A stretch of DNA of 64,000 nucleotides from an uncultured Candidatus Saccharibacteria bacterium (GTDB lineage: Bacteria > Patescibacteriota > Saccharimonadia > Saccharimonadales > JACDBH01): assembly GCA_964644965.1 (NCBI GenBank), contig CAZXYN010000002.1:3075-67074 (forward strand), read 5' to 3'. Positions 14,008 through 63,169 of the stretch are shown here, in pieces (the first letter of the stretch is position 1; each line of letters opens with the position of its first letter). The notes beneath the pieces are model-generated. The model had not been told where the DNA came from and made no database searches. It saw only the letters and a program-made list of their open reading frames with translations. The position numbers and the translations under genes were made by a program.

Positions 14008-14041
14008 AATAAAAACCCGGAGTATATCCGGGTACTTATTT
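14008..14041. terminator. Bidirectional intrinsic terminator
   Basis: ACCCGGA-GTATA-TCCGGGT hairpin (14015-14033) between A- and T-tracts. It ends both the sigma gene (+) and the tRNA array (-). Confidence 0.75.
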
Positions 14042-14074
14042 TGGTAGCAAGGGCGGGACTTGAACCCGCGACCC
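14042..14074 (-). pseudogene. 3' half of a split/disrupted tRNA-like gene (variable loop, T-arm, acceptor 3' strand, CCA)
   Basis: Minus strand reads GGGTC GCGGG TTCAAGT CCCGC CCTTGCT A CCA. No D-arm or anticodon arm lies immediately upstream. Confidence 0.7.
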
Positions 14075-14289
14075 GAAGAAGCTCGGGGAGCTTCTGAGTT
14101 CACGCTAGATGTGCGTCTCCGACTGTTTAGTGATTTGTGGTTGCAAAAGCTTTTCTGATTGTATAGCGCTGAGCGCCGAAGGCGCGACAGGCTTATATAG
14201 CTTCACGCCAGGGAATCTATTTCTTTTCCAAGGAAGGATTCCTTGGGTTCGGCATATATTCTCGCTAATCGCTCGAATATGAGTCTTGC
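14075..14289 (-). other. Hairpin-rich 215-nt spacer inside the tRNA transcription unit
   Basis: Perfect hairpins AGAAGCTC-CCC-GAGCTTCT, CCAAGGAA-TCC-TTCCTTGG and GCGCC-TTC-GGCGC, plus a degenerate CAU anticodon-arm-like piece (AAGACTCATATTCG). No ORF is present. Confidence 0.4.
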
Positions 14290-14306
14290 TTGAAAATTTA
14301 TTTTGG
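14290..14306. repeat. 17-nt inverted repeat, arm 1 (includes the CCA end of tRNA-Met)
   Basis: ttgaaaatttattttgg is the exact reverse complement of 14382-14398. Confidence 0.9.
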
Positions 14307-14380
14307 TAGCGGCGACTGGACTTGAACCAGTGACCCCAGGCTTATGAGTCCTGTGCTCTAACCAACTGAGCTACGCCGCC
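14304..14380 (-). tRNA. tRNA with CAU anticodon: elongator Met or Ile2 (lysidine)
   Basis: 77-nt cloverleaf GGCGGCG TA GCTC AGTTGGTTA GAGC A CAGGA CTCATAA GCCTG GGGTC ACTGG TTCAAGT CCAGT CGCCGCT A CCA. C11:G24 is the elongator type. tilS is present in the window. Confidence 0.9.
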
Positions 14381-14400: not shown

Positions 14401-14432
14401 CACTGTGCTCTAACCAACTGAGCTACCTTGCC
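14401..14432 (-). pseudogene. 5' half of a split/disrupted tRNA-like gene (acceptor 5' strand, D-arm, anticodon-stem 5' strand)
   Basis: Minus strand reads GGCAAGG TA GCTC AGTTGGTTA GAGC A CAGTG. The acceptor strand is complementary (G-U plus 6 Watson-Crick pairs) to CCTTGCT at 14046-14052. No 3' anticodon strand follows. Confidence 0.7.
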
Positions 14433-20773: not shown

Positions 20774-22405
20774 ATGAAAAGCCGTATTCTTAGCCGTGCC
20801 AATAAGAAAGTGTCCTTTGGTGGCGCAGCTACATTATTAGTTGTAACTGCCATGATTGGCCAGGTCTTAGGGTTTTTGCGTGTAAAGTTCATCAATGCCA
20901 ACTTTGATGCGCTTGGTCCGCACAGTACCGACGCTTTTTTTGCGGCCTTTAAGATTCCTGATTTCTTCTTCTATACAGTTGCTGCCGGTGCACTTGGTGT
21001 TGCCTTTATCCCTGTTCTGGCCGATCGGCTAGAAGAAAAAGATCGCAAGGGTGCCTGGGAATTATCTTCTAGCCTATTGAACTTGCTAGCTATAGTAATG
21101 TCGGTAGTAGGTGTGCTGCTATTTGTGTTTGCCGAACCGCTGATTCACTACGTCGTTGCGCCAGACATGAGCCCTCAGCAGTTGCACAACGCGGTGTTGA
21201 TTATGCGGCTGATTTCATTCAACCCACTGCTGTTCACGATTGGTGGTATTTTGACGGCGGCTCAACAGACTATGGGGCGGTTCTTTTATTTTGCGGTGGC
21301 TCCCTTGTTCTACAACATCAGTATTATTATTTCGGCAATTGTATTTAGTAATGTTGGGTCGAATGACGGTGGGCCGAACAATCTAGGACTAGTTGGTCTA
21401 GGAGTTGGTGCGCTGATTGGTGCGATTTTGCAGCTGGTGGTCATAATTGTTGGTATGGGTGGACTGAAGTATCGTTGGCACCCAAAGATAAACTTCCGGT
21501 CCAGGCACTTCCTGATGGTGCTGCGTCAGCTGCCGGCACGTTCGATTGACCAAGGTATTGATTCGATCAACTCAATTGTAGAGACCAACTTTGCTCGTAG
21601 ACTTGGCACAGGCTATCTGAGTTACTACGAAAATGCCTACACGCTGCATACAGCACCGATTTTGCTTATTGGTTCGGCAATATCAACAGCTGCTTTTCCA
21701 CGTATGAGCGAGCGGTTGGCGCAAGGGCGGCGTGATCTTTTCCGTAAGGAATTCTTACAAATACTGCGAATTATGATCTGGATTACGGTGCCAGTAGTAG
21801 TGGTGTCATTCTTTGCACGAGGCTATCTGGCGCGCGTTATCTTTAGTCGTGACGCGCCGGAGATTGCGGCTATTTTTGGCTTTTTGTGTGCGGCAATATT
21901 CTTCCGAGTCATTTACTCAATTGTGTCGCGCTATTTCTACGCCCAGAAGGACACCTTGACACCACTATTCGTGTCTATATTTGCTATTGGATTGAACATT
22001 TTCCTGGCCTGGCATTTATCAAGGCCATGGAATTATGGCGTGGCTGGGCTGGCGATGGCACAATCTATTGTTGCAGCTGCGGAAGTATTTATCCTGTCGG
22101 CAATCATGGTTTATTACGATCACAAGCTATTTGATAAGGAGTTCTGGAGTGGTATTTGGCGAATTATGTCAGTAACTGGCTTTAGCGTCGTAGCAGCTTA
22201 TACGATGGTGCAAATATTCCCACTGCAATCAGGAGATGTTGGATTTGTGACGCTTGGCTTTAAGCTCATGCTGATTACAATCGTTACCGGCGTCACCCAT
22301 GTTGGACTGTCTTATCTATTTGGGCTAGAAGAAGCCGAACCGGTCATTCGCAAGCTCAAGCAATTGATGCGCATTGTCCTAAGGCCAGTACACATCGACT
22401 GGTAA
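20774..22405 (+). CDS. murJ: Lipid II flippase MurJ/MviN
   Basis: 543 aa with ~14 TM segments. The N-terminal region (SRxLGFxRxxxIA-like: GQVLGFLRVKFINANFD) and overall architecture match MurJ. Confidence 0.85.
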   Translation: MKSRILSRANKKVSFGGAATLLVVTAMIGQVLGFLRVKFINANFDALGPHSTDAFFAAFKIPDFFFYTVAAGALGVAFIPVLADRLEEKDRKGAWELSSSLLNLLAIVMSVVGVLLFVFAEPLIHYVVAPDMSPQQLHNAVLIMRLISFNPLLFTIGGILTAAQQTMGRFFYFAVAPLFYNISIIISAIVFSNVGSNDGGPNNLGLVGLGVGALIGAILQLVVIIVGMGGLKYRWHPKINFRSRHFLMVLRQLPARSIDQGIDSINSIVETNFARRLGTGYLSYYENAYTLHTAPILLIGSAISTAAFPRMSERLAQGRRDLFRKEFLQILRIMIWITVPVVVVSFFARGYLARVIFSRDAPEIAAIFGFLCAAIFFRVIYSIVSRYFYAQKDTLTPLFVSIFAIGLNIFLAWHLSRPWNYGVAGLAMAQSIVAAAEVFILSAIMVYYDHKLFDKEFWSGIWRIMSVTGFSVVAAYTMVQIFPLQSGDVGFVTLGFKLMLITIVTGVTHVGLSYLFGLEEAEPVIRKLKQLMRIVLRPVHIDW

Positions 22406-22437
22406 CAGAGGTAGAAATCTGTTAGACTTGTGGATAA

Positions 22438-22560
22438 ATGAAACAGGACCACATCCGGAACTTCTGCAAACTTGAGACACCCATTCTGGGTTTCTCAACG
22501 CGCCAGCAAAATGGAATACATTTTGTCGGGCTGTTCTTCCCAGCTGGTGGTAAGTCGTGA
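22438..22560 (+). CDS. 40-codon leader ORF: relic lepA N-terminus read through repeat copy B
   Basis: ATG AAA CAG GAC CAC ATC CGG AAC TTC TGC (MKQDHIRNFC) parallels the lepA start VNQSHIRNFC. The frame stays open through the repeat and ends at a TGA overlapping the lepA GTG (GTGA). Confidence 0.4.
   Translation: MKQDHIRNFCKLETPILGFSTRQQNGIHFVGLFFPAGGKS
22471..22541 (-). repeat. Family-1 two-hairpin repeat, copy B (inverted orientation)
   Basis: Reverse complement reads GGGAAGAACAGCC CGACAAAATG TATTC CATTTTGCTG GCGC GTTGAGAAACCCAGAATGGGTGTCTCAAG. Confidence 0.8.
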
Positions 22561-24338
22561 ATCAGTCGCATATCCGGAACTTCTGTATTATTGCGCATAT
22601 AGATCACGGCAAATCTACGCTAGCTGATCGCTTGCTGGAACTAACCGATACCGTGCAGAAGCGAGACATGAAAGCGCAGCTGCTGGACAAGATGGACCTA
22701 GAGCGCGAAAAGGGAATTACTATCAAGCTGACCCCTGTTCAGATGGAATACAAGGGCTATCAGCTAAATCTAATCGATACACCAGGGCATGTCGACTTTA
22801 GCTACGAAGTATCGCGTAGTCTTGAGGCTTGCGAAGGCGCAATCTTAGTCGTAGATGCCAGTCAGGGCATTCAGGCGCAGACACTCGCCAATGTCTACTT
22901 GGCAATGGCAGCCGATCTGAAAATTATTCCAGTATTGAATAAGATTGATTTACCGGCGGCTGACGTGCCTAGAGTATCGGCAGAGGTTGTTAGTCTACTT
23001 GGTTGTGACGAAAGTGAAATACTCCACATCTCTGCCAAGACCGGCGAAGGTGTGCCGGCGGTGTTAGATGCTGTAGTAGAACAAATTGACTCGCCAAAAG
23101 GAAGTGGTGATACAGAAACACGGGCTCTAATATTCGATAGTTACTACGATGATTACCGAGGGGTTGTACTATATGTCCGCATTGTAGACGGTGAAATTAC
23201 CAAAGCCTCTGACATCACCATGATGGGAACACAGAGTCACGGTTTGGCTTTAGAAGTTGGAAAACTTAGTCCTGGTATGACACCAACCTCATCACTCAGA
23301 ACAGGAGAGATTGGCTACATTGTGACCAATCTCAAATCTACCCGCGAGGCAAAAGTTGGTGATACGGTGACGCTCAGTAAATCCCAAGCAGCCGAGGCAC
23401 TACCCGGCTACAAAGAAGTGAAGCCGTTTGTTTATGCCGGTATATTTCCAGAAAGCAATGAGTACTACAATGAGCTCAAAGAAGCTGTCGAAAAGCTGTC
23501 GCTCAGTGATTCAGCGTTGCAGTACGAGCCAGAAAATTCACCAGTTCTAGGATTTGGTGTGCGGGTTGGCTTCTTGGGGCTACTGCACATGGAGATTGTC
23601 CGCGAGCGTCTGGAACGTGAATACTCTTTGAGCTTAATTATTACTAATCCAAGCACCGACTATCACGTCAAACTTCTGAACGGCGAGCAAGTGGACATAA
23701 AATCTGCTAGCAGCTTGCCCGATCCTGCTAAGATTGCATCTATTGCCGAGCCGTGGATAAAAGGCGAAATCGTCGTGCCGAAGGAATATGTAGGTGCGGT
23801 CATTCAGCTAATATCGCAAAAGCGTGGACTACAAAAAGGGCTAAGCTTTGTCGATGCACAGTTGGCTCTAGTTAACTTCGAAGCACCACTAGCTAACTTA
23901 CTAACAGACTTTTATGATCAGCTCAAAAGCGTGACCAGTGGCTACGGATCGTTCAATTACGAACTGGGCGAATACCGCGAGGAAGATTTGGTGCGCGTAG
24001 ATTTCTATGTTGCCAGCGAGATTGTCGGTGCGCTTTCTGTGATGGCTCACAAAACAGAAGCTGATGCACTTGGGCGCGAGACCGTTGCCAAGCTTAAGGA
24101 AGTCATACCACGGCAGAACTTCAAGGTAGCCTTGCAGGCAGCAATCGGCGGTAGATTTATTGCCCGCGAAGATATTTCGGCTTATCGCAAGGACGTAACT
24201 AGTGGGCTCTACGGTGGTGATGTATCACGTAAGAAGAAGGTGCTAGCCAAGCAAAAGAAGGGCAAGGAACGTCTAAAACGCTTTGGCAAGGTAGATATCC
24301 CAGCCGAAGCCTTCACAGTAATGCTGAAACGAGATTAA
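22557..24338 (+). CDS. lepA: Elongation factor 4 (LepA)
   Basis: IRNFCIIAHIDHGKSTLADR G1 motif, DTPGHVDF, NKIDL, and the LepA-specific C-terminal domain. GTG start. Confidence 0.97.
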   Translation: MNQSHIRNFCIIAHIDHGKSTLADRLLELTDTVQKRDMKAQLLDKMDLEREKGITIKLTPVQMEYKGYQLNLIDTPGHVDFSYEVSRSLEACEGAILVVDASQGIQAQTLANVYLAMAADLKIIPVLNKIDLPAADVPRVSAEVVSLLGCDESEILHISAKTGEGVPAVLDAVVEQIDSPKGSGDTETRALIFDSYYDDYRGVVLYVRIVDGEITKASDITMMGTQSHGLALEVGKLSPGMTPTSSLRTGEIGYIVTNLKSTREAKVGDTVTLSKSQAAEALPGYKEVKPFVYAGIFPESNEYYNELKEAVEKLSLSDSALQYEPENSPVLGFGVRVGFLGLLHMEIVRERLEREYSLSLIITNPSTDYHVKLLNGEQVDIKSASSLPDPAKIASIAEPWIKGEIVVPKEYVGAVIQLISQKRGLQKGLSFVDAQLALVNFEAPLANLLTDFYDQLKSVTSGYGSFNYELGEYREEDLVRVDFYVASEIVGALSVMAHKTEADALGRETVAKLKEVIPRQNFKVALQAAIGGRFIAREDISAYRKDVTSGLYGGDVSRKKKVLAKQKKGKERLKRFGKVDIPAEAFTVMLKRD

Positions 24339-24345
24339 TCTCCTC

Positions 24346-24418
24346 GGGAAGAGCAGCCAGAGCACCAGGCTTTGCCTGTGCCCTGCGTGATGAGAAACCC
24401 CGAAGGGGTGTCTCATTA
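24346..24418 (+). repeat. Family-1 two-hairpin repeat, copy A
   Basis: GGGAAGAGCAGCC AGAGCACCAGG CTTTG CCTGTGCCCT GCGT GATGAGAAACCCCGAAGGGGTGTCTCATTA, beginning 7 nt after the lepA stop. Confidence 0.8.
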
Positions 24419-24424
24419 GGTCCC

Positions 24425-24457
24425 AAGCCTTCACAGTAATGCTGAAACGAGATTAAT
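24425..24457 (+). repeat. Exact 33-nt duplicate of the lepA 3' end
   Basis: aagccttcacagtaatgctgaaacgagattaat is identical to 24307-24339 (last 10 codons plus stop). The two copies flank an 85-nt segment containing repeat copy A. Confidence 0.9.
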
Positions 24458-24582
24458 ACAGGGCACATTGCGGCGATTTCAGATGTGCTCCGCGTCAACA
24501 GTATTCAGATACAGTTGACTTGCGGTGCTCCTGTAAATCACCACACTGCACTCCTGTATTACTCTCGATTTCGAGCAGACCT

Positions 24583-24635
24583 CGGAAGATCAGCCGAGTG
24601 CCCCGGCTTTACAAGAACCTCGAGGGGGGTCTCAT
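24583..24635 (+). repeat. Family-1 repeat, degenerate/truncated copy A'
   Basis: CGGAAGATCAGCC GAGTGCCCCGGCTTTACAAG AACCTCGAGGGGGGTCTCAT parallels the 5' box and terminal hairpin of copies A and C. Confidence 0.5.
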
Positions 24636-24700
24636 CCTCATCGGACTAAAACCTCCATCGTCGCCTAACCCCTGTAAAATAAAAACTTGTAAAAATCACC

Positions 24701-24733
24701 CCTGTAAAAGGCCTGGCCTTTTACAGGTTGTTC
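24701..24733 (+). terminator. Strong hairpin plus T-rich tract (likely terminator of the lepA unit)
   Basis: CCTGTAAAAGGCC-T-GGCCTTTTACAGG 13-bp stem followed by TTGTTCTTT. Confidence 0.6.
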
Positions 24734-38104: not shown

Positions 38105-38264
38105 AACCCCTGTATTTTGCTCCTGGTCTTAACCAAAATACCAAACCAGGCAACTTGTTTGCCGTTTGGGATTTTGAGAGGAGGCGGCTTGGTCTAATGA
38201 CTGAGCTTGTCGGGCAAATTCATTTTGCCGGCGGGCTAGTCATTAGACTATTACACGCCGACGA

Positions 38265-38341
38265 GGGCCCATAGCTCAGCCGGTTAGAGCATCTGCCTTT
38301 TAAGCAGAGTGTCGTGGGTTCGAGTCCCACTGGGCCCTCCA
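38265..38341 (+). tRNA. tRNA-Lys (anticodon UUU)
   Basis: GGGCCCA TA GCTC AGCCGGTTA GAGC A TCTGC CTTTTAA GCAGA GTGTC GTGGG TTCGAGT CCCAC TGGGCCC T CCA. Confidence 0.95.
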
Positions 38342-38497: not shown

Positions 38498-38515
38498 GTC
38501 CCACTGGGCCCTCCA
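38498..38515 (+). repeat. Direct repeat of the last 18 nt of tRNA-Lys (att-like)
   Basis: gtcccactgggccctcca is identical to 38324-38341. Confidence 0.85.
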
Positions 38516-39442: not shown

Positions 39443-40894
39443 ATGGAGAGGCGTACAGTCTATCGCCGCACCACACGCTACATACTGTGCGGTGCGGCTA
39501 TTCTTGTAGGGCTTGCTTGGGCGCGGTTTGGTGGTGAGATCAGTGGCTGGTGGCCAATTGTACTTGGATTCTTGGCGCTTACAAGTTTTCGACGGGGCAG
39601 GTTACTGTCGGTATATGCGGTTGTATTCTTTGGGTTCTCGCTTGGCTGGTGGCGTGGTGGAATCTACATGAACGAAGTCAACTTCTTGCAAACTATTAGC
39701 AAACAGAAGGTGACTCTGGTGGGACGTGTACTGAACGATAGCTTGTATGATGATCGTGGCGCTGTTTCGTTCGACATGGGATCTTTGCAGTTAGAATCGC
39801 CTGACGGAAATCAGAAGGTAATTGGCAAGGTAGGTGTGTCTGGCTATGGAGAGAGAATGATTTACAGAGGTGACGAAGTACGAGTTACCGGCAAATTTTA
39901 TCCAGGCAGAGGCTCCTACGTCGCCTGGCTTAGTTACGCAGAATTGCAGGTGGTTAGCCGGTCTCAGTCAGCTGTTTTTGGAGTTACACGCAATTTTGCA
40001 GCTGGGATACAAACAGCTCTTCCAGAGCCTCAAGCATCTTTTGGATTAGGGCTACTAATTGGTCAGCGGAATACCCTACCCGAAAGCACCAGTGAAATTC
40101 TAGCTATGGTCGGCTTGACACACATCATTGCGGTGTCTGGTTATAACCTGACAATACTTGTACGAGCAACTCGTCGCATGTTCTCTAAGCGTTCAAAATT
40201 CCAGGCTATGTTTGCGGCATGTTTGCTGATATTTTCATTCTTGCTAGTGACTGGTGCGCAACCATCTATTGTCCGAGCTTCTATTATTAGTATTTTGTCG
40301 CTTGGCGCCTGGTACTTCGGCAGAACGATTCGCCCGATGACGATACTACTCATTACAGCGGCAGCTACGGCACTCTGGAACCCGCTGTATTTGTGGTCTG
40401 ACATTGGCTGGTATTTGTCATTCCTGGCGTTCTTTGGCGTATTAATGGTGGCGCCGGTTGTCAAAAAACGTCTTTATAAAGACAGAAAACCAAGAGTCAT
40501 GGGCGAACTAATGATAGAAAGCTTCTCTGCTCAGCTGATGACGCTGCCACTTATCTTGTATATATTCAACGAATCAAGCTATATGGTTCTGCTTGCCAAC
40601 TTGCTTGTTGTGCCGCTAATTCCATTGGCTATGATAGCTACGTTTGTTGCCGGTCTTGCTGGGATGTTCATACCGGTTATTGCTGGTTGGTTTGCCTGGC
40701 CAGCTAAATTAATCCTGACATATATGCTCGATGTAGCCGGGCTTGTGGCACGGATACCAAATATGCAGTTTACTGTTTCGCTAAGCGCTGGCACGATGGT
40801 ATTTATGTACGCCGCAATCCTACTGATTACGGTTATATGGTGGCAGAAGCTGCCAGAAAATGCTAAGATAACAGATACAAACTATTTGGAGTAG
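39443..40894 (+). CDS. comEC: DNA internalisation competence protein ComEC/Rec2 (no beta-lactamase domain)
   Basis: N-terminal DUF4131-like OB region followed by the competence domain LLIGQRNTLPES...GLTHIIAVSGYNLTIL and many TM segments. Confidence 0.85.
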   Translation: MERRTVYRRTTRYILCGAAILVGLAWARFGGEISGWWPIVLGFLALTSFRRGRLLSVYAVVFFGFSLGWWRGGIYMNEVNFLQTISKQKVTLVGRVLNDSLYDDRGAVSFDMGSLQLESPDGNQKVIGKVGVSGYGERMIYRGDEVRVTGKFYPGRGSYVAWLSYAELQVVSRSQSAVFGVTRNFAAGIQTALPEPQASFGLGLLIGQRNTLPESTSEILAMVGLTHIIAVSGYNLTILVRATRRMFSKRSKFQAMFAACLLIFSFLLVTGAQPSIVRASIISILSLGAWYFGRTIRPMTILLITAAATALWNPLYLWSDIGWYLSFLAFFGVLMVAPVVKKRLYKDRKPRVMGELMIESFSAQLMTLPLILYIFNESSYMVLLANLLVVPLIPLAMIATFVAGLAGMFIPVIAGWFAWPAKLILTYMLDVAGLVARIPNMQFTVSLSAGTMVFMYAAILLITVIWWQKLPENAKITDTNYLE

Positions 40895-41772: not shown

Positions 41773-42246
41773 ATGAGAATCATAGGCATTGATCCGGGCA
41801 CCGGAATACTTGGTTTTGGTATCATTGAAGTCACTAAGGGCAAGCCGCAACTGGTTGACGGTGGGATAATACGCACTCCTATCAAAGAAGACGATGCCAT
41901 TAGGCTGCTTACAATTTATGAGGAATTAACAGATATTATTGCTGCTACAAAGCCGCAGGAAATGGCTGTGGAGAAGCTTTTCTTTGCCAAAAACGTTACT
42001 ACAGCTATGACTGTAGCGCAGGCTAGGGGAGTGGTGTTACTAACGGGCATGCAGGCGGAGCTCAAGATTAGCGAATACACACCAATGCAAATAAAACAGG
42101 CTGTAACAGGTTACGGCCGAGCCGAAAAGAAGCAGATTCAGGAAATGGTTAGAGTAATATTGAACCTTAAGGAAGTGCCGCGGCCGGATGATTGTGCTGA
42201 TGCGCTTGCCTGCGCCATTACTCATGCCCAAACTATCAGGGTCTGA
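41773..42246 (+). CDS. ruvC: Holliday junction resolvase RuvC
   Basis: MRIIGIDPG...GFGII, EKLFF, and DDCADALACAITH. Confidence 0.93.
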   Translation: MRIIGIDPGTGILGFGIIEVTKGKPQLVDGGIIRTPIKEDDAIRLLTIYEELTDIIAATKPQEMAVEKLFFAKNVTTAMTVAQARGVVLLTGMQAELKISEYTPMQIKQAVTGYGRAEKKQIQEMVRVILNLKEVPRPDDCADALACAITHAQTIRV

Positions 42247-42277
42247 ATATTTTTTGGTCGGTCGCTAGTATGAGATA

Positions 42278-42868
42278 ATGGAACCAATGATTGCAACACT
42301 TTCTGGGACTCTAAGCGAAAAACTGTCGGATGTAGTAGTTCTAGAAGTTGCTGGAGTTGGCTATGGACTGTATATAACAGTCGAAGATTATAGCTCGATT
42401 CACATTGGCGAAGATATAAAGTTCTATGTTTACGAACACATTCGTGAGCAAGCCCATGACCTGTTCGGTTTCTCGAATCTTGATGGCAAAAAACTCTTTG
42501 AGCAACTGCTCGGTGTCAAAAACGTTGGTCCAAAGGTAGCCATGGCAGTGCTTGATATTGGTACGACAGATACTGTTCGATCGGCAATTGCAAACGGCGA
42601 TGTGAAGATGTTGCAAGCTGCAAAGGGCGTTGGAAAACGAGCAGCCGAACAGATTGTGGTTGAGCTTCGCGACAAGGTCGGCATATCAGCATCCGAATCA
42701 GCCGAAGATATCGTTAATCGTCCAGGCATGAACGGACAAGACGAAGCAACAGAAGCTTTGGTTGCGCTTGGCTACAGCCCACAGGATGCAAGCTTGGCTC
42801 TGAAGCGAGTAGACAAGGCCCTACCTGTCGAAGAACGTGTTAGGCAGGCGCTGAAGGGTAGTTTCTAG
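42278..42868 (+). CDS. ruvA: Holliday junction DNA helicase RuvA
   Basis: MIATLSG.L, L.GV.GVGPK.A..L, and a C-terminal domain III. Confidence 0.92.
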
Positions 42869-42870
42869 CC

Positions 42871-43908
42871 ATGGCGGTTGAGCGAATAGTACATACAGTT
42901 GCTGGCGATGATGATCAGCAAGAAGTCGAATTAGAAATTACATTACGGCCTAAGGATTTTGCGAACTACATCGGTCAGGAGAGGCTTAAGAAAAACCTAC
43001 AGCTTGCGATTGACGCTGCCAAGAAGCGTGGTGAACCACTTGATCATATTTTGTTATATGGCCCCCCGGGACTCGGTAAGACCACCATGGCTAGCGTTAT
43101 TGCTAAAGAGATGGGTGCGCAGATTCGCGTTACAAGTGGTCCGGCAATTGAGCGCGCTGGTGATTTGGCAAGCCTGCTCACCAATCTACAAGACGGCGAC
43201 ATTCTGTTTATTGATGAAATTCACCGTTTGCACCGAAGTGTTGAAGAGGTGCTCTACAGTGCCATGGAAGATTACAAGATAGATATCATGCTCGGCAAAG
43301 GTCCAAGTGCACGCAGTATGCGTCTGGATGTGCCTAAATTTACGCTAATTGGCGCGACTACTAGGACTGGAGCCCTGGCTGCTCCACTACGTGATAGGTT
43401 TGGTATTATTCACAGGCTCGAATTTTATTCACCAGATGAAATTGCCCAGATTATTATACGTGCAGCCGATATCTTAGATAGCAATATTAAGCCAGAGTCT
43501 GCAGCGTTACTATCTACTCGATCAAGACTGACTCCGCGTATTGCCAACAGGCTGCTAAAGCGAGTCCGAGATTACGCCGATGTCAACGGTGATGGGATCA
43601 TTGACACAGAGATTACTCATGCTGCGTTAGGATTACTCGAGATTGATGAGCTTGGCCTAGACCCAGCAGATAGGCATTTGCTGGAGAGAATTATTGAAAA
43701 CTATGGTGATAGCCCAGTAGGCTTAAATACGCTTGCTGCGTTAACAGGTGACGAGGCTACCACTATCGAAGATTTTTATGAGCCTTATCTCATGCAGATT
43801 GGACTGCTCGAACGGACACCGAGGGGTAGAAAAGTTACCGTCAAGGCTTACGCTCATCTTGGCGGAGATCAGAAAAGAAAACCATCAGATCAGGCAAAGC
43901 TACTCTAA
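42871..43908 (+). CDS. ruvB: Holliday junction DNA helicase RuvB
   Basis: [29 protein letters not shown], and GATTR.G.L..PLRDRFG. Confidence 0.97.
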
Positions 43909-43949: not shown

Positions 43950-44564
43950 ATGAACGAATCAGAAAAAGACATCCATCACAGGCGGCAGACCGAAACTAGA
44001 TTGTCTACCGAAGGTCGTAAATACTTTAGATACATAGAGTTTGATGCTGACGAAGAGCTTGTCACCGAAATTAGAAAGCATCCTGTAGGTCTAGCTATCA
44101 TCATACTAACTGGTGGGTTTGTTATGCTGGCACTAGCTATAGTTGGTATCTTTGCTTCTGTTACTGACTTCGTAGGTATAACTGGGGCTCAAGAAACATC
44201 TCAAGTCGGGGCATTAATAACCATAGTCTGCATATTGCTAATTATAGGTGCGGCAGTCATGACCTTTATTGCGGCGTTCTTATACAACAGTAACGTAATA
44301 TTCGTTACTAGTGAAAAGATTGCCCAAGTTGTTTATAAGAGTCTATTCAATAGAAAGATATCTCAGCTTTCAATTGGTGATGTGCAAGATACGACTGTTA
44401 CTCAAAAGGGCGTAATTGCTCACATGTTCAACTATGGAACTCTGGTGATTGAGACAGCCGGTGAACAGCAGAACTATACATTCACCTACGTCCCCGATCC
44501 ATATCAAGTATCAAAAATGATTGTTGGATCACACGAACGGAACCTAAAGGATTTTGGCAACTAG
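43950..44564 (+). CDS. bPH_2 (DUF304, YdbS/YdbT-like) membrane protein
   Basis: Two TM segments followed by a PH-like region (IFVTSEKIAQVVYKSLFNRKISQLSIGDVQD...GTLVIETAG). Confidence 0.7.
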   Translation: MNESEKDIHHRRQTETRLSTEGRKYFRYIEFDADEELVTEIRKHPVGLAIIILTGGFVMLALAIVGIFASVTDFVGITGAQETSQVGALITIVCILLIIGAAVMTFIAAFLYNSNVIFVTSEKIAQVVYKSLFNRKISQLSIGDVQDTTVTQKGVIAHMFNYGTLVIETAGEQQNYTFTYVPDPYQVSKMIVGSHERNLKDFGN

Positions 44565-45145
44565 TAACTCTCCGCTGGGGCAGTCAGTGGGTCGTCGCAA
44601 CTAAGACAATAGCCCGGGTAGGTTGCTGGTTGGTGTGGATGAGCCTGGCAGGGACCCTCTAAACAGAAATAAACACTACTATTGATGCCAAAATCTTCTG
44701 CCCAATCAGTCCTAGGGAACTTACAAGTTTCAGGTTGTCCAATTTCACAGTATCGAATACTAATCTGAAAAGCCCATTCGCTACCAACCTGGAAGGCATC
44801 ATAATCATAGACACTTCCGGGCCACGGTGCATGCGGCCATGCGTCAGAATCATTGCCCTGTACAAACTCCTCGATGCCGGGTGGAATGTTTCTATCAACA
44901 TCCGCTGGGTAGTCACCGTATTTCAAGATAAATAGGTTTATTGCTGAGCGCATTGTGTTCATCTCGGCTCCGGCTCGAGCAAGATAGGCGCGCTCTCGGC
45001 CGCTAAAAAGATTCGGTATGGTAATGGCCGCTAAAATACCTAGGATCACCATAACGACGAGCACTTCAATAATCGTAAAACCCTGTTCGCTCAGTGGGCT
45101 GATTTTAAGTTTTGACAAGAGTCTCCTCACTCGAGCGTCAGGCAT
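44561..45145 (-). CDS. Type IV pilin-like protein with Cys-rich C-terminal domain
   Basis: Prepilin motif EQG-FTIIEVLVVMVILGILAAI after a 21-aa leader. The globular part has 8 Cys. Confidence 0.75.
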   Translation of the reverse strand: MPDARVRRLLSKLKISPLSEQGFTIIEVLVVMVILGILAAITIPNLFSGRERAYLARAGAEMNTMRSAINLFILKYGDYPADVDRNIPPGIEEFVQGNDSDAWPHAPWPGSVYDYDAFQVGSEWAFQISIRYCEIGQPETCKFPRTDWAEDFGINSSVYFCLEGPCQAHPHQPATYPGYCLSCDDPLTAPAESY

Positions 45146-45153
45146 ATTATGAC

Positions 45154-45444
45154 CTACTCCGTGAAAGGATTATTTCGCGACTCTTCGAACAATGCCTTAA
45201 CTTCAATATTTTGGTCTTCAAGTTCTAGTAGTGTTCGAGCTGCATCCTCATCTAGATTGGGTCTTTCTGTACTACTGACTTGGTCAAGTACGCTTCCCTT
45301 TGATGGCTCGCGTAGTACCTGCTGACTGCTGGTCCAGAGTATTACTCCGCACAGACCTGCAAAAATAGCGACAGCAATTACAAATCTGTATTTTTGTAAT
45401 TTTTCAATCAGTAGTCTGGATTGTTTTTTTAAATCATTCATCAT
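45154..45444 (-). CDS. Small TM protein in the pilus cluster
   Basis: One TM segment. It is translationally coupled (ATGA overlap) to the upstream pilO-like gene. Confidence 0.5.
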   Translation of the reverse strand: MMNDLKKQSRLLIEKLQKYRFVIAVAIFAGLCGVILWTSSQQVLREPSKGSVLDQVSSTERPNLDEDAARTLLELEDQNIEVKALFEESRNNPFTE

Positions 45445-46079
45445 GGTTTCACAAAACTTTTTAGATTAAGGCTAAAGGAAACGTAGTCAGGATTTCCTAC
45501 GTTTGGAGTGATTGATATATTGCTCACCTGAGCCGTTCTACGGTTATTCTCAAGTCGTCGCAAGTAGTCTAGTAGCTGGTCATAGGTAATATTTTGTTCA
45601 GGGTCTGCGGTGATAGTTATAGTCATTTCGTAGACGCCCTTCAGGCCTTCTACTTCTGTTAGCTGAGTTAGGCCTGAGGTGCTGGACGACCCTCCTCTTG
45701 CAAGACTAGGACCAGAAGAAGCCTTTGATTTCTTTGTTACTTGACCTAGTTCGGATGCCGGAAACTGAACACTCTGGATGTTTATACCTGATTTCTTGGC
45801 AAGCTCCACAATTTCCAAAACGGTTTTTGCTTGATCTTTTTCCTGGGGCACTATTGCTTTTGTGATGAGTTCGAGATCTTTATACTCAGCTATGTCTTTT
45901 ATCGCCTGATCCAGTAATTTTTGCTTTTCATCTGCTACTTTGGACTCGAGCTTGGCTTTTTCTAACTCATCACCTTGTTTAATAACCATCTTGTAACCAC
46001 CATAAGTTACACCTAAGCCAAGTATAACAAGCAGGCTCACAACTCCAACCATACCTAGAAATGCTTTCTTGGCGTTCAT
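45441..46079 (-). CDS. pilO: PilO-like pilus assembly protein
   Basis: N-terminal TM segment plus coiled coil, its position after pilN, and overlapping stop/start codons. Confidence 0.6.
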   Translation of the reverse strand: MNAKKAFLGMVGVVSLLVILGLGVTYGGYKMVIKQGDELEKAKLESKVADEKQKLLDQAIKDIAEYKDLELITKAIVPQEKDQAKTVLEIVELAKKSGINIQSVQFPASELGQVTKKSKASSGPSLARGGSSSTSGLTQLTEVEGLKGVYEMTITITADPEQNITYDQLLDYLRRLENNRRTAQVSNISITPNVGNPDYVSFSLNLKSFVKP

Positions 46080-46675
46080 CCTTCCGGCTCCTTATACAAT
46101 TTTAAGAATGAGTCATTGTCTTCGGCAAAAAGGGCACGAATTGAAGATGTGCAAGGGTATGTCGAGTTAGAATCGGTTCCCGCGCACTTAACTTCGCCAA
46201 TATCTGCTTTGTCGAATATTCGGTCTTCACCGGTAGTAAGATTGACCTGGGCTTTTACACCAGACTCATAGTCCACCGACAAGATAGTGAGATCAAGCGC
46301 ACCGGTAAGATCACTGTTTAGAGAAAGTGACGTTAGAACGGTGTCTGGCGGCATGACCTTGCCGATTTCGGTAAGAAGCTTCGAGAAAAGCACTTCATTT
46401 GATAGAACATCGAGCGTAAGTTTTAGATTGCCGCTTAGTTCGTTTACTCGCGCAATTACTTCTTCTTGGTTGCGTTCCTCTAGCGATTGGTTCATCTTAT
46501 CGGCTGCACTTACGTGTTGGTTTGTGTCTTGTTTGAGATAAAATAAACTTCCGCCAGTAAACACCATAAGTCCCAAGACAGCGATACCTACCCCAATAAC
46601 CCAACCAATAAGTTGGCTATTGAGCCTTGAATAAGAAATTGATTTCTTATTGGTGTCTGGCATCAAGTTGATCAT
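46076..46675 (-). CDS. pilN: PilN-like pilus assembly protein
   Basis: MINLMPD (INLLP-type) N-terminus, a TM segment, and its position after pilM. Confidence 0.7.
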   Translation of the reverse strand: MINLMPDTNKKSISYSRLNSQLIGWVIGVGIAVLGLMVFTGGSLFYLKQDTNQHVSAADKMNQSLEERNQEEVIARVNELSGNLKLTLDVLSNEVLFSKLLTEIGKVMPPDTVLTSLSLNSDLTGALDLTILSVDYESGVKAQVNLTTGEDRIFDKADIGEVKCAGTDSNSTYPCTSSIRALFAEDNDSFLKLYKEPEG

Positions 46676-47751
46676 TTCCAGATCTCCTCAGGCTTTGTGA
46701 TCGCCGTGCCGGCTACGGTGACATAAAGGGACTTTTCGGCCTCTGATGGAGGCTGTAAATCATCAGTTTGAAAGCTGCTCCAGAAATTGCACATGCGAGT
46801 TGCTATACGTAGATTGTCGGTCATGTAGTCAACAAGCCCTGGCATATTAGAGCCGCCACCCATAGTTATAATCTGACCAATGGTTGACTTACCATCGGTA
46901 CGCTCTTCGTAGTAGCGGACAACACGGCGGATTTCTTTGACGAGCGAATCAAGCTGTGGCTTGAGGGCCTCTCTGATTTCTGTCTGGTGCTTACTAACGC
47001 CTAGACCGTATTTCGTCTTAATGCTGTTGGCTTCAGCCTTGCTGACGCCGAGCTTTTCAGAGATTCGATTGGAAAAATCATCACCACCACCTGGAATTGT
47101 TCCATTGACCACTAGGTTTTTGTCAAACACGGTCAAGTCAACGGATAATGAACCAAGGTCAATCAGAATGGTTGGAGTATCCTGGCTGTTCTCGACTTTT
47201 GAGATGATACGGCTGGCTGCAGAGATGGTTGTTTCGAGCGCACAGACTTCTAGGCCAATCAGCTCGAAAAACTTCATGTAGGAGTCCACAATCGTTCTAG
47301 GAGCACCTACGATCAGTACTTCTACTTGGTCGTCATGCCGATTTACGATTTCGTGATCCAAGTAGAGCTCTTCTATAGGGATTGGAATGTACTGGGCGGC
47401 TTCAAGTTTGACGGCTTCATCGAGCTCTTTCTTTTTGAGCTTGGCGGGCAAGGTTATGACTCGAGAGTAGGCCTTGGATGCTGGCACTGTAGCAACTACG
47501 CGTCTAGTAGTAATGTTGCCAATGACATTTTTCTTAAATAACTCGGTAGCTGATTTTGCGATTGACTCGTAGTCTACAATTACACCGTCTTTTATGGCTT
47601 TTTCGTCAAACTTGGAAACGCCGTAGCCGATAACAGTAGTAGATTTTTTGTCGTCCTCAAGCTGCATGACTTTAATCGTGTTAAAGCCAATATCAAGCCC
47701 GAAAAGTGGCTTGTCCTTGTAAAAAAGTGTTTGGGAGTTATTTGTGCCCAC
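46672..47751 (-). CDS. pilM: Type IV pilus assembly ATPase-like protein PilM
   Basis: Actin-like fold blocks FGLDIG...IKV and IDLGS..VDLTVF. Confidence 0.85.
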   Translation of the reverse strand: MGTNNSQTLFYKDKPLFGLDIGFNTIKVMQLEDDKKSTTVIGYGVSKFDEKAIKDGVIVDYESIAKSATELFKKNVIGNITTRRVVATVPASKAYSRVITLPAKLKKKELDEAVKLEAAQYIPIPIEELYLDHEIVNRHDDQVEVLIVGAPRTIVDSYMKFFELIGLEVCALETTISAASRIISKVENSQDTPTILIDLGSLSVDLTVFDKNLVVNGTIPGGGDDFSNRISEKLGVSKAEANSIKTKYGLGVSKHQTEIREALKPQLDSLVKEIRRVVRYYEERTDGKSTIGQIITMGGGSNMPGLVDYMTDNLRIATRMCNFWSSFQTDDLQPPSEAEKSLYVTVAGTAITKPEEIWK

Positions 47752-47820
47752 GATAATCCAGCGGTGCCCTCGGTTTTCTTTAACCTTTAGTATATCAAAC
47801 TGCTTACGCTTCGAACAGGG

Positions 47821-49278
47821 CTATTCGAAGTCATACTGGTAGCTTCGTATGCTCCAGCCTGAACTTCCAGTGGCGAGTCCAGTGCCAAAATTAATCGTTC
47901 CGCTTCCACTCATACGTACACTTTGCCCAAGGGCAGATCCTACATTTCCAGAACCAGTAATGTGAACTCGTCCCCAGTACGATTGGAATATCGCAGAGTT
48001 TAGATTACCTGAGCTACCGCCGATGGTTACCGTTTCAAAGCTTTGCGAGCTGCTAAGCTGAGATCCCGTCAAAGTCGTACAATTTGGATTGCAAGCCGCA
48101 TTAGATCTGAAGCTTATAAATCTAACCCCTGTTCCACTTGAATTGGGTATGACTGTAGATGAGTTAGTTGTTATAGCGCCATCGACTAACACGATTGGCG
48201 CTGTCGTGCCTACAGAATCTGAAACTCTGATTCTGCCTGACGCGGCAAAGCTAAAATTACCGGTTATGTAGACATTGCCATTTATAGTTAAATCACAGTT
48301 GTTTGAATTGAAATTGCCATCTAGTCTTATATTTGCTGGCCATGTTCGGACAAAGCCATGTGGATTTTGCCACTGGCTGCAATCGTAGGTAATATTGTTG
48401 CTTGCGGTGGTAGTTGTCATGGAGGCAATATGAGCGACTCGGTCATAGGTAGGCATTGTAGTTACAGGTGCGACACAGCCAGGAACCAATCCTGCACCAG
48501 TGCTCCCGCCTGTAATTTGGGTATTTGCTCCACCAATCGGAAACTTGGTCTGGGTTTGATGCGTCGCGCAAATGGTGCCAACTATCATGTTATTACCGCC
48601 ATTGTTCGTAATTGTGATAGCTTCTCCTGAGGTACATTGCGTTGGATAAGCGTTGCCAGTACCACAGTTGGCATTTGCGACCGATATATTAAGCGGTTGT
48701 GCAACCGTGCCAATTCCAACACTTCCGGAGTTGGACATAGTAATCTTTCCATTTACATGCACATTTGCCGCGTTGAGGATTCTTCCATTATCCATTATTA
48801 GACCACCCGGTCCTGCATGTACAGCATATCCAGGTGATGAGGTAGGTACGATAGTTACTCTTACTCGGCGTTCTTTTTCAAGGCTCCCTGATTTATTATA
48901 TGCACGTCCAATTGAGATGATGACTTTTTCGTTAGGCCCTGTACCATCTTCGACAATAGTCTCGTACGTGCCACGCCCCTGATCGGCATTGTCATAAAAT
49001 TCCCCATCTTCTTCTGGGTAACCAAGAAATGTACTGTCGGAAGTTATTGCCTTGACCGACCTCTCAATACCGGCCTCAGCAGTAAGTAATGCATTGCTAA
49101 CATAAACGTTTTGAGTAGTACGTCGAAGTTGCACAATCGCTACTTGTGCTATGGATATACCCACAAAAGTAAGAAGCAATCCAGCGAGTAATACGGTAAT
49201 GAAGACAATGCCTTTTTGGTTTTTATGAAGCTTATAATTTGCAAATGTTGGAAAGTATTTGCGTAGAATCTTACTCAT
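47821..49278 (-). CDS. Large (485 aa) pilus-cluster protein, N-terminal hydrophobic anchor, Gly/Thr/Asn-rich repetitive body
   Basis: The N-terminal segment IVFITVLLAGLLLTFVGISIAQVAIVQL is PilX-like but has no G-F-T-x-x-E site. The rest looks like beta-rich repeats with conserved Cys. Confidence 0.55.
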   Translation of the reverse strand: MSKILRKYFPTFANYKLHKNQKGIVFITVLLAGLLLTFVGISIAQVAIVQLRRTTQNVYVSNALLTAEAGIERSVKAITSDSTFLGYPEEDGEFYDNADQGRGTYETIVEDGTGPNEKVIISIGRAYNKSGSLEKERRVRVTIVPTSSPGYAVHAGPGGLIMDNGRILNAANVHVNGKITMSNSGSVGIGTVAQPLNISVANANCGTGNAYPTQCTSGEAITITNNGGNNMIVGTICATHQTQTKFPIGGANTQITGGSTGAGLVPGCVAPVTTMPTYDRVAHIASMTTTTASNNITYDCSQWQNPHGFVRTWPANIRLDGNFNSNNCDLTINGNVYITGNFSFAASGRIRVSDSVGTTAPIVLVDGAITTNSSTVIPNSSGTGVRFISFRSNAACNPNCTTLTGSQLSSSQSFETVTIGGSSGNLNSAIFQSYWGRVHITGSGNVGSALGQSVRMSGSGTINFGTGLATGSSGWSIRSYQYDFE

Positions 49279-49960
49279 TTCTAAATACAGTCCTTGTGCT
49301 ATAGTTTACATCTACTTCTCTCCCATATTTTTGGGTACGAAGATTCAGCGATACTTCAACAGCTCTAGCGTTTTCTGGCTCAACTTCATCTCCCAAGCCA
49401 TCATAGTAGCGAAACTGCAGTGAATAGACATTCTTGACGGACAATCTGTCGCTCGGACAATCATCTGTAGCATCTTCAGGGGGGCAAGTGGTATTCGATG
49501 AATTACCAGGAACTTCGTTAGCCAAAGTTCTCTTGTAGAGGGTGCCATTCTCTACATAGTAAATAATATTGTCTTTCTCCGATATGTAGTGAGATGCATC
49601 GGCGAAAATAATTTCATTACTCTCATTAGTCGCCGCAGTATTCAACACTAGCGTGTCGACATCGGATTCCCAGCCATAACCATTGGTTGCAGCAGCGTCT
49701 GGCGAGTAAATATCTTCCACAGAGTTGTTTGCTGCTGATGATGCACTGAGTCGGATATCTTTTACCATGACATCAAGTGACAGTTGGGCTTCGCGCAATA
49801 AATCAGCGCGAGCTGATCTGATACTGTTATTTACAAGCGACGTAACAAGAAAAGTCATTATTCCTATAAATAAAAGTGATGATATTGAAATGGCTACCAG
49901 TAGCTCAATGAGAGTAAATCCTTTCTCGCCTTTATGGGGTGTATATCTTTTCTGAATCAC
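49271..49960 (-). CDS. Minor (PilW-like) pseudopilin
   Basis: EKG-FTLIELLVAISISS prepilin motif. Confidence 0.75.
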   Translation of the reverse strand: MIQKRYTPHKGEKGFTLIELLVAISISSLLFIGIMTFLVTSLVNNSIRSARADLLREAQLSLDVMVKDIRLSASSAANNSVEDIYSPDAAATNGYGWESDVDTLVLNTAATNESNEIIFADASHYISEKDNIIYYVENGTLYKRTLANEVPGNSSNTTCPPEDATDDCPSDRLSVKNVYSLQFRYYDGLGDEVEPENARAVEVSLNLRTQKYGREVDVNYSTRTVFRNE

Positions 49961-50370: not shown

Positions 50371-50372
50371 AA

Positions 50373-50406
50373 CAAAAACCGGCTACCAGGGGCAACCGGT
50401 TTTTTG
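50373..50406 (-). terminator. Intrinsic terminator/attenuator between pilA and the minor pilin genes
   Basis: AACCGG...CCGGTT stem with a 13-nt loop between A- and T-tracts. Confidence 0.6.
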
Positions 50407-62883: not shown

Positions 62884-62908
62884 ATTCTCTCTTCGTTCTT
62901 CGTTTATC

Positions 62909-62980
62909 GGGAAGAGCAGCCAGACAAAATGTATTCCATTTTGCCTACGCGATGAGAAACCCCGAAGGGGTGTCTCATTA
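62909..62980 (+). repeat. Family-1 two-hairpin repeat, copy C
   Basis: GGGAAGAGCAGCC AGACAAAATG TATTC CATTTTGCCT ACGC GATGAGAAACCCCGAAGGGGTGTCTCATTA. It abuts the stop codon of the convergent small ORF. Confidence 0.8.
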
Positions 62981-63169
62981 CTAAAGCTCGCTCTTGCCAC
63001 GAAAACCAAAACCAGCTATGACTATGCTTGCGATCATATTGACGATCACAATGCTGACTAGCGAAAGCTCTGGGTCAATTGCCAGCAGCGCTGCGCTACC
63101 CAACCATATAATGCCGATGGCACCAGCTGTGTACGGGTATTTGATGAACAGTACAAATTCCTTAAGCAT
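62981..63169 (-). CDS. 62-aa two-TM small membrane protein
   Basis: Two hydrophobic helices. Its start overlaps the upstream ABC1-kinase gene end. Confidence 0.5.
   Translation of the reverse strand: MLKEFVLFIKYPYTAGAIGIIWLGSAALLAIDPELSLVSIVIVNMIASIVIAGFGFRGKSEL

Follow-up and report, generated by a model that had tools for sequence, protein, structure and literature searches.

In a window of 64,000 nucleotides (nt) from a Candidatus Saccharibacteria genome, which is the whole stretch of DNA analysed here, the intact gene lepA (EF4) stands between two inverted copies of a small two-hairpin repeat, and on the far side of each copy lies a relic of the adjoining end of lepA itself. This arrangement of gene end, repeat and relic end is real, unusual and general in Saccharibacteria. 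It is apparently new to the literature: searches for work on repeats and lepA in Saccharibacteria, on MITEs in Patescibacteria, on coupled repeats and on repeats upstream of tRNA genes brought up no account of the element or the architecture, and a paper on Pyrobaculum C/D-box sRNAs proved unrelated. The mechanism behind the gene-end duplication is partly resolved. Rather than a classical target-site duplication, we tentatively prefer homology-anchored recombination, with DNA entering a naturally transformable lineage, as the origin, and regard this as plausible but short of probable. With more confidence, we propose that the relic start of lepA opens a leader reading frame through which translation of the working gene would be restored.

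The nearest LepA relatives of the window are annotated as Candidatus Saccharibacteria or Saccharimonadales. Two near relatives, L001 (92% LepA identity) and L002 (93%), were retrieved through their exact proteins, and the lepA loci of 80 species representatives were compared; loci and contigs are labelled L001 and so on. From one end to the other, the element consists of a purine-rich tail GGGAAGAGCAGCC, a first hairpin that varies between copies, the motif GCGCGATGAGAAA, a second, conserved hairpin interrupted by a mismatch, and a terminal TCTCAT(AAGGCGAAGCC). The alignment of nine copies gave a two-hairpin consensus of 77 columns, and a covariance model then found more copies, both at lepA loci and elsewhere. 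A pattern scan of metagenomes returned at least 125 copies in at least 120 contigs; the metagenome counts given below are counts among the matches listed.

The lepA locus in the window

The features of the locus are as follows.

22438..22467, + strand: relic 5' end of lepA, ATG and nine codons (MKQDHIRNFC), 23 of 30 nt identical to 22557-22586
22438..22560, + strand: leader open reading frame (ORF) of 40 codons, from the relic ATG through repeat copy B; its TGA (22558-22560) overlaps the lepA GTG as GTGA
22468..22544, - strand: two-hairpin repeat copy B, GGGAAG end toward lepA, covariance model score 88.6 bits
22542..22556, + strand: linker between repeat and lepA start, with a Shine-Dalgarno-like GGTGG at 22546-22550, 6 nt before the GTG
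22557..24338, + strand: intact lepA (EF4), GTG start, TAA stop, 593 amino acids
24304..24339, + strand: 3' end of the working lepA (final 35 nt with the TAA, and one further nt), the left of the two block copies
24343..24420, + strand: two-hairpin repeat copy A, GGGAAG end toward lepA, covariance model score 82.2 bits (24346-24418 by eye)
24422..24457, + strand: relic 3' end of lepA including the stop, 35 of 36 nt identical to 24304-24339; the downstream flank follows directly

The gene between the repeats is intact from GTG 22557 to its TAA, as an earlier note on this DNA had read it: the 593-amino-acid product carries the four LepA Pfam domains GTP_EFTU, GTP_EFTU_D2, EFG_C and LepA_C, matches one database protein at 100%, and has many Saccharibacteria relatives at 84-93% identity. 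That note had also described a copy A followed by an exact second copy of the last 33 nt of lepA. Both are present, and the exact part (24307-24339 = 24425-24457) is embedded in a 36-nt direct repeat with one mismatch and a start-to-start distance of 118 nt. At the 5' end the two copies are in register, MKQDHIRNFC against VNQSHIRNFC with 23 of 30 nt identical and a spacing of 119 nt. By itself this 5' relic is weak (alignment score 18 against 13 for the best shuffle). The proposed relic nevertheless holds, because the same layout with longer relics, up to 50 nt, is found at lepA in five other loci (L001, L007, L037, L052 and L079). The GGGAAG ends of both repeat copies do face lepA. Fold z-scores for the two strands are -4.2 and -2.8 for copy B and -3.6 and -3.7 for copy A. 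Linkers related to that of the window, GGCCGGAGG and GATTGGAGG, occupy the same position in L007, L052 and L001, the first of them being common to L007 and L052.

Recurrence of the unit at other gene ends

Taking both ends of lepA together, such units occur in six other species representatives. Units at the 5' end of lepA were found in the window and in the same five loci. The five share a layout in which a relic begins at an ATG and resembles lepA over 30-50 nt; a minus-oriented repeat, a linker and the real start come next. The linker of the lepA 5' units is 14-22 nt long and carries a Shine-Dalgarno-like motif in most loci, and the real start is often GTG. Repeat-containing units at the 3' end of lepA occur in the window, twice in L007, and in L129 and L143. 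In L007 two different family members stand in series at the 3' end, with a gene-end copy of about 49 nt after each and a partial relic in addition. The 3' relics of L001 (71 nt) and L067 (57-61 nt) lie behind other hairpin spacers. Hairpin-rich spacers opening with CTCTTCAG-type motifs were seen at L001:5783-5905, in L067 about 86 nt past the lepA stop, and at L007:6218-6260, and they may represent one or more further element families.

The units are not confined to lepA. The 5' end of msrA is affected in L104, L128, L146 and L188, that of tpiA in L185, and the overlap of the rplC stop with the rplD start in L157 and L196; 3'-end units were also found at a PGI-like gene, a gene for a membrane protein, a UvrD-like gene and LeuRS. 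In the metagenome contigs, only about 4 of the at least 125 copies adjoin lepA. The earlier note had proposed a survey of the flanks of other copies, and such copies do carry duplicated flanks: about 16 of 125 have significant flanking direct repeats of variable length (21-58 nt). About 87% of copies, high-scoring ones included, show no detectable flanking duplication. Empty sites, which the note had suggested looking for in relatives, also exist. L002 is empty on both sides of lepA, as are most of the 80 representatives, and at its 5' site only 42 nt separate the murJ stop from lepA, with a TGTTATAAT box 9 nt ahead of the ATG. Two of the metagenome copies with duplicated flanks, at L103:1300-1520 and in L189 (near 797, minus-oriented strand), lie between copies of a 42-48-nt block that comprises a whole intrinsic terminator 3' of an RNA-like gene end (...CACCCGCCGCGGGTGGGC).

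Block boundaries and orientation

The duplicated block measures 21-71 nt overall. On the outside it never fails to end within 0-3 nt of the start or stop codon, but its inner edge varies, so that the lepA 3' end alone has blocks of 35, 42, 49, 56, 61 and 71 nt. All 20 cases that can be assigned, 11 at 5' ends and 9 at 3' ends, have the GGGAAG end of the repeat toward the working gene and the TCTCA end toward the relic. A conservative count puts the independent founders at 13 or more (p = 2e-4). The second repeat of L007, a different family member, entered the relic copy in the same orientation and with the same 49-nt block, and selection for an intact gene is therefore not the whole reason for the fixed orientation. 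The linker on the gene side is 1-12 nt long at 3' ends and 12-26 nt long with a GGAG-type motif at 5' ends; since its length differs with the gene end, it is not a constant part of the repeat. No microhomology was seen by eye at the junctions of repeat and relic. We also considered that orientation at 5' sites might follow from a minus strand free of stops, and rejected this, as both strands typically have one or two open frames.

Divergence between relics and working ends

Differences between relics and working ends fall on codon positions 1, 2 and 3 in the ratio 28:13:76, and 63 of the altered codons are synonymous against 26 non-synonymous. This distribution departs from a uniform spread (chi-square p = 9e-13) and also from a model of in-situ decay in which the relic decays neutrally and the gene accepts synonymous change only (p = 2e-5). 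Even 3' relics that cannot be translated keep the frame, with 7 synonymous and 0 non-synonymous changes in L067 and 10 and 3 in L129. In L119, the inner 43 nt are identical at 42 positions, while 7 of 10 positions in the last three codons have changed and the encoded ends are still ELT* and ELA*; the same gradient from inner identity to outer divergence is seen in L037, L052 and L067. Other pairs are identical or nearly so, namely the 3' pair of the window (35/36), L143 (42/42) and L146 (38/38). By their codon differences, the relics resemble the ends of genes that were still at work in a diverged lineage until recently. Among the window, L001 and L002, synonymous change has reached saturation, with a third-position identity of about 0.48. 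Since the relics are still 77-100% identical to the working ends, the units must be young or repeatedly refreshed and do not descend from one ancient insertion.

Template and variable repeats of a diversity-generating retroelement were considered and rejected: the differences are of synonymous type and not adenine-specific, the window has no reverse transcriptase match, and 5' ends are affected too. Length variants of LepA (597-640 amino acids) were likewise examined as possible in-frame repeat insertions and proved to be low-complexity insertions unrelated to the repeat. An insertion of 4-47 amino acids after residue 65, in the G domain, is found in the LepA proteins P0015, P0079, P0085, P0091, P0092, P0097 and P0106.

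The same duplication without the repeat

The duplication is also found around cargo other than the repeat. At L019:5783-6575, the lepA stop is followed by a complete Phd/YefM-PIN toxin-antitoxin operon that has its own promoter and a palindromic operator; there is no repeat copy, and beyond the operon lies a 64-nt, synonymously diverged relic of the lepA 3' end. Within the window, tRNA-Lys (38265-38341) is followed by a terminator, an insert of about 120 nt, an 18-nt copy of the tRNA 3' end (38498-38515, 174 nt downstream) and a native-looking terminator. Likewise, tRNA-Met (14304-14380, - strand) has an exact 24-nt copy of its 5' part at 14403-14426, 52 nt upstream, and a diverged tRNA 3' part (T arm and acceptor strand) at 14036-14074, about 215 nt downstream, followed by a terminator-like hairpin. 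As the flanks of the toxin-antitoxin operon and of the tRNA inserts are duplicated without the repeat, a cargo-independent process is the more economical explanation.

Several smaller elements were noted at these sites. At tRNA-Lys, a GC-rich hairpin (GCGCACAGATTAATGTGCGC) abuts the relic, and a degenerate left half of the repeat lies upstream at about 38210-38250. A second small repeat family (TCGAGCGATTAGCGAGAATATATGCCGAACC...CTGGCGTGAAGCTATA) occurs in the insert after tRNA-Met (14246-14276, - strand), and a member of this family is nested inside a copy of the main repeat at L007:5923-5953.

The window also encodes ComEC, a type IV pilus cluster (PilM, pilins, PilC-like and PilB-like proteins), RuvC, RuvA and RuvB, RecA and RecX.

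39443-40894, 41773-43908, 44561-54119 and 54429-56979: transformation and recombination genes, all within the window

Natural competence and recombination-based genetics have been shown in Saccharibacteria (PMC10633639).

Origin of the units

In the recombination model that we tentatively favour, foreign or sister DNA carrying a conserved gene end with an adjoining repeat, or another donor tail, would enter the cell and pair with the resident gene. One crossover would take place in the conserved gene body, and a second junction, between the heterologous tail and the recipient strand, would form 20-70 nt short of the resident gene's end, before homology ends. The resident end would thus be left outside the insertion and survive as the relic. 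The resulting unit would be homologous to the gene on both sides and could from then on be transferred by double-arm recombination whatever flanks the gene, the transfer loop consisting of the working end and the cargo between the gene body and the relic arm. It could also be lost by recombination between the two block copies. Such a model would account for the terminus-bounded blocks, the allelic relics, the gradient from inner to outer positions, the patchy distribution, and the similar linkers in distant genomes. For the window itself, where relics and gene differ at few positions, we infer this origin by analogy with the wider family.

Several points weigh against the recombination model. 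Its most interesting unexplained feature is the strict orientation, which neither homologous recombination nor homology-facilitated illegitimate recombination predicts. Recombination also does not explain why the junction always lies 4-19 nt past the TCTCAT end, which points to an active end, and the double entry in L007 similarly suggests that the repeat or its TCTCA end takes an active, sequence-directed part. The synonymous bias of the relics could follow from a true duplication followed by replacement of the working end by a foreign allele, with the gene body and the conserved repeat as homology arms. The relics of the window show one difference at the 3' end and seven at the 5' end without clear bias. 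Beside the 5' insertion, the first 63 codons of lepA in repeat-bearing loci showed no aggregate signal of hitch-hiking, and no before/after pair of near-identical genomes was found among the comparators. Homology-facilitated illegitimate recombination, finally, usually deletes recipient DNA instead of duplicating 20-70 nt, and has no preferred cargo orientation.

The first alternative is a non-autonomous transposable element, mobilised by a transposase acting in trans that cuts with a stagger of 20-70 nt and so leaves long, variable target duplications. Only insertions that restore a whole gene end would survive, and later recombination would swap the working end so that relics look allelic. 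The identical and near-identical pairs (the window 3' end, L143 and L146) look fresh, the repeat is dispersed over many contexts in both orientations, and two different members stand in tandem at one lepA end in L007, all of which would suit transposition. The earlier note had held that duplications of 30-33 bp are much longer than those of known transposition; length alone excludes nothing, given the long and variable direct repeats of the IS1634 group. Yet the element has no terminal inverted repeats in the alignments, where its left end GGGAAGAGCAGCC is not complementary to its right end GGGTGTCTCAT..., and the great majority of copies show no flanking duplication. No duplication lies wholly within non-functional intergenic DNA, and the outer edge of the block never passes beyond a gene terminus. 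The gene-side linker is too variable to be a fixed part of an element, non-repeat cargo shows the same duplication, and a symmetric duplication leaves the fixed orientation unexplained. The window, as the earlier note had stated, has no recognisable transposase or integrase: a Pfam search of its ORFs of at least 90 amino acids, several of which have no match at all, returned no transposase, integrase or reverse transcriptase, and no Pfam match to RAYT (Y1 transposase) was found within the 64 kb. Viral contigs gave 0 matches to the repeat pattern. An element duplicating about 30 bp of its target, one of two origins that the note had offered, thus fits poorly with the terminus-bounded blocks, the fixed orientation, the synonymous bias and the non-repeat cargo, and we consider it unlikely.

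A second alternative, which we likewise judge unlikely, takes up the points that recombination leaves unexplained and treats the repeat as an active, polar recombination element whose TCTCA end is nicked, protected or ligated. It might serve as an HUH/relaxase nick site, as a Chi-like signal, or as an exonuclease-proof hairpin on incoming single strands. Repeat and gene-end copy would then form a homology-armed selfish cassette able to pass from species to species through natural transformation and RecA alone. Such a cassette would need no transposase or integrase and would leave its target gene unharmed, and the same RNA would be the processed 5' leader of tRNAs.

The third alternative is a miniature integrative cassette made of the repeat and a gene-end copy, inserted by a site-specific recombinase in trans, which would recombine the cassette's gene-end copy with the end of the chromosomal gene as at att sites, and capable of forming tandem arrays. 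The block is indeed bounded by the gene terminus and the orientation is fixed. In L037, L052, L067 and L119a, differences cluster near the terminus as an element-borne replacement end would give; L007 holds a tandem array with the same block boundaries twice, and where tRNA 3' ends of the window have relics, these are reminiscent of classical att duplications. We nevertheless find the cassette very doubtful. The many unrelated target genes would each need their own cassette-borne copy, the block length varies at a single gene end (35-71 nt at the lepA 3' end), and a double-stranded circle of only 120-170 bp would hardly serve as substrate. The window yielded no integrase, and synonymous variants peculiar to one genome are common to gene and relic in their inner parts, unlike what an imported cassette would show.

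Fourth, the whole arrangement of minus repeat, lepA and plus repeat may have entered at once and replaced the interior of a resident lepA. Both ends of lepA are occupied together in the window, L001, L007 and L079, that is in 4 of 81 loci where about 0.5 are expected (Fisher p = 3e-4), and tRNA-Met of the window is likewise bracketed by relics of both its ends. The test on the 81 loci does not correct for lineage, and the co-occurrence may simply reflect lineages rich in the repeat. Many loci, moreover, are occupied on one side only (5' in L037, L052 and L059; 3' in L067, L129, L143 and L019), and the variable hairpins of the two copies in the window are very unlike. Saturation of synonymous sites blocks any recognition of a foreign lepA by its synonymous divergence relative to the flanking ftsH and murJ. 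From this distribution, the 5' and 3' ends appear to be separable events. Replacement by an incoming repeat-flanked allele, the other origin offered by the earlier note, comes closer to the evidence than target duplication does, but in a modified form, as it is the gene end with its adjoining repeat that appears to have been recombined in; as a single entry of both ends we hold it very unlikely.

An assembly artefact or chance similarity is hardly credible: although exact blocks of 33-43 nt fall in the k-mer range of assemblers and the source contig is of the metagenome-assembled type, the same layout recurs at orthologous sites in independent NCBI, JGI, ENA and Logan assemblies, many copies are diverged and not exact, the frame of the leader ORF is conserved, and a chimeric path presupposes the duplicated block in some real molecule.

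Proposed expression of lepA through the leader reading frame

How can lepA be expressed when a structured repeat stands between its old and its present start? The leader frame in the window does cross copy B and end at the GTGA, as the earlier note had read it, and an equivalent frame exists wherever a 5' end is duplicated. Each of the 11 5' sites has an ORF that begins at the relic start, runs on through the repeat and terminates on the real start or a few nucleotides from it, 8 of them by an NTGA overlap. At lepA, the relic ORF is 40-48 codons long in 5 of 6 loci and ends at a TGA within the (A/G)TGA of the real start; the spacings in these five loci (119, 125, 140, 140 and 143 nt) differ but all leave a remainder of 2 when divided by 3. 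The relic ORF of the remaining locus, L037, overlaps lepA by 11 nt. Equivalent leader ORFs are present at msrA (four loci) and tpiA (one locus), and at rplC/rplD in L157 a mini-ORF runs through a plus-oriented repeat with the TAATG overlap kept on both sides. Composition-shuffled spacers keep the leader ORF of the window open in about 24% of cases; with a per-site chance of about 0.24, leader ORFs at 11 of 11 sites are not due to chance. The geometry thus argues for the translational coupling that the earlier note had read from the window, and for coupling at all comparable 5' sites.

The old promoter appears to have been kept as well. The relic ATG of the lepA 5' loci lies 7-9 nt after a TGnTATAAT-type -10 box, the same place as the native start in relatives free of the repeat, and the empty site of L002 reads TATAAT, 9 nt, ATG. 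This distance suggests that the native lepA mRNA is leaderless. In the window itself, a promoter scan called no sigma-70 site upstream of the relic ATG.

From these features we infer that the leader ORF is a termination-reinitiation device that would restore lepA translation, and our confidence in it is above that in the origin of the units. Transcription would start from the old, probably leaderless, promoter, and ribosomes would initiate at the relic ATG. They would translate the 40 codons across the repeat and terminate at the UGA in GUGA. Re-initiation would then take place on the lepA GUG, aided by the Shine-Dalgarno-like GGTGG in the linker.

The repeat as a candidate structured RNA

The element is about 75-95 nt long, with two unlike hairpins and conserved single-stranded segments, and its copies are solitary. 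Two subfamilies can be distinguished, one of the form GGGAAGAGCAGCC...GAGAAACCC...GGGTGTCTCA and the other of the form (A)GGGAAAAGAGCAGCC...GAGAAAAACC...GGTTTGTCTCA, and the right end is often longer, as TCTCATAAGGCGAAGCCGCC. In an alignment of 116 copies, 98.4% of pair cells are canonical and 18 of the 23 pairs change on both sides. None of 500 shuffles matched this covariation, and no slid control came close. G-U pairs number 35 on the GGGAAG strand and 10 on the other (p = 2e-4), a count to be read with the fact that the alignment was fitted to the GGGAAG strand and that a single position gives 15 of the 35. A search of Rfam gave no match for the repeat at the gathering score over the whole window and none at E <= 10 over 22400-22620.

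In 23 of about 103 metagenome copies (22%), the repeat is plus-oriented and a tRNA gene of the same direction follows, its mature 5' end 4-18 nt past the end of the repeat; the pairs involve 11 tRNA identities, and the opposite orientation was found 0 times. These loci include L090, L092, L095, L098, L100, L101, L114, L118, L136, L139, L140, L152, L160, L161, L172, L174, L175, L181, L184, L190, L192 and L201. At the tRNA copies, TGnTAnAAT-type -10 boxes lie 17-45 nt 5' of the repeat, which would place the repeat in the transcript as a pre-tRNA leader that RNase P could release. A plus-oriented repeat also stands 3-13 nt before the start codons of hrcA (L031:6631-6709 and L076:7533-7611) and dnaK (L001:9572-9652), 3' of CIRCE-like operators, and none of these three copies has duplicated flanks. 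The repeat often follows directly after stop codons. Over all copies, distances to gene ends show only a moderate left-side bias, and this statistic is confounded by crude start-codon calls. Taken as sequence evidence, the tRNA and gene contexts together with the G-U bias suggest an RNA-level role of the plus strand, as a processing or stability element or as a small RNA. The covariation, the one-strand G-U bias and the tRNA-leader copies make the repeat a strong candidate for a new structured RNA family.

Comparison with known systems

Integrative elements that insert at gene ends carry a replacement end with them, as do islands in tRNA 3' ends and SXT in the 5' end of prfC. The units described here resemble them in the terminus-bounded direct repeat, the intact working gene, the displaced native end on the distal side and the possibility of tandem accretion; like lepA, moreover, the target prfC is a gene for a translational GTPase. 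Unlike those elements, the cargo here is about 80-95 nt of non-coding sequence, no tyrosine or serine recombinase lies between the repeats or in the window, many unrelated genes are hit, and there is no fixed crossover, as the lepA 3' block length varies.

Homology-facilitated illegitimate recombination during natural transformation has been described in Acinetobacter and Streptococcus. It shares with the present units one homologous anchor in a conserved gene, a second junction nearby, and independence of the cargo, and it requires competence genes and RecA, both of which the window encodes. To our knowledge, a self-propagating unit with both arms in one gene has no earlier description.

Small repeats that are translated or translationally coupled are known as mycobacterial interspersed repetitive units (MIRUs) and, in Rickettsia, as palindromic elements (RPEs). 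Here, too, a small dispersed repeat is read by ribosomes, as far as the reading frames can tell, and a small ORF overlaps the flanking stop or start (rplC/rplD, lepA, msrA and tpiA). MIRUs are tandem units in operons, whereas copies of the present repeat stand singly, the sole array (L007) consisting of two different members parted by gene-end copies. RPEs insert in frame within genes, and neither MIRUs nor RPEs are flanked by duplicated gene ends or fixed in orientation.

Miniature inverted-repeat transposable elements (MITEs), repetitive extragenic palindromes with their mosaic clusters (REP/BIME) and palindromes derived from IS200/IS605 are, like the repeat, short, non-coding, hairpin-forming, dispersed and often just past stop codons. 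The repeat differs from MITEs in having neither terminal inverted repeats nor a short target duplication of fixed length. A REP/BIME unit is a single imperfect palindrome of 20-40 nt with a conserved 5' tetranucleotide and usually occurs in clusters, in contrast with the two different hairpins, the total of about 77-95 nt and the solitary copies found here. Covariation that favours one strand, and the large share of copies serving as tRNA leaders, separate the repeat from all three groups. The IS1634 group of the IS4 family is reported to make flanking direct repeats of tens to hundreds of base pairs and of variable length, and in this respect the present blocks, at tens of base pairs, are alike. 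Its members, unlike the repeat, are 1.5-2 kb long with a DDE transposase and inverted repeats, and gene termini do not bound the duplications that they make.

The genomes of Saccharibacteria and other Patescibacteria are tiny and contain few mobile elements that can be recognised, and yet these bacteria exchange DNA. Units of gene end, cargo and relic end give a testable picture of how DNA may enter at the edges of conserved genes without breaking them, and of how a leader ORF terminating on the real start may rescue expression. Were the strict orientation due to an activity of the repeat itself, it would represent selfish DNA whose spread needs only competence and RecA, and it would offer a design idea for portable integration cassettes in newly tractable organisms.

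Further copies and minor features in the window

Two more members of the repeat family lie in the window.

24580..24639, + strand: degenerate, shortened member about 120 nt past the 3' relic, a weak match (13.8 bits, E = 0.12)
62906..62982, + strand: third full copy, 90.3 bits, flanked by the stop codons of a YmdB-like gene and of a small ORF convergent with it

The third copy has no duplicated flanks, with a direct-repeat score of 6.5 against 12 for the best shuffle. Downstream of lepA, an 18-nt inverted repeat (89% complementary) at 24445-24462 and 24553-24570 pairs the junction of the relic lepA stop and its flank with a site 90 nt further on. A bidirectional, terminator-like hairpin with a perfect 12-bp stem (CCTGTAAAAGGCC...GGCCTTTTACAGG) lies at 24701-24727, just 5' of a guanylate-kinase-like gene, and the motif CCCCTGTAAAA occurs twice, at 24668 and 24698.

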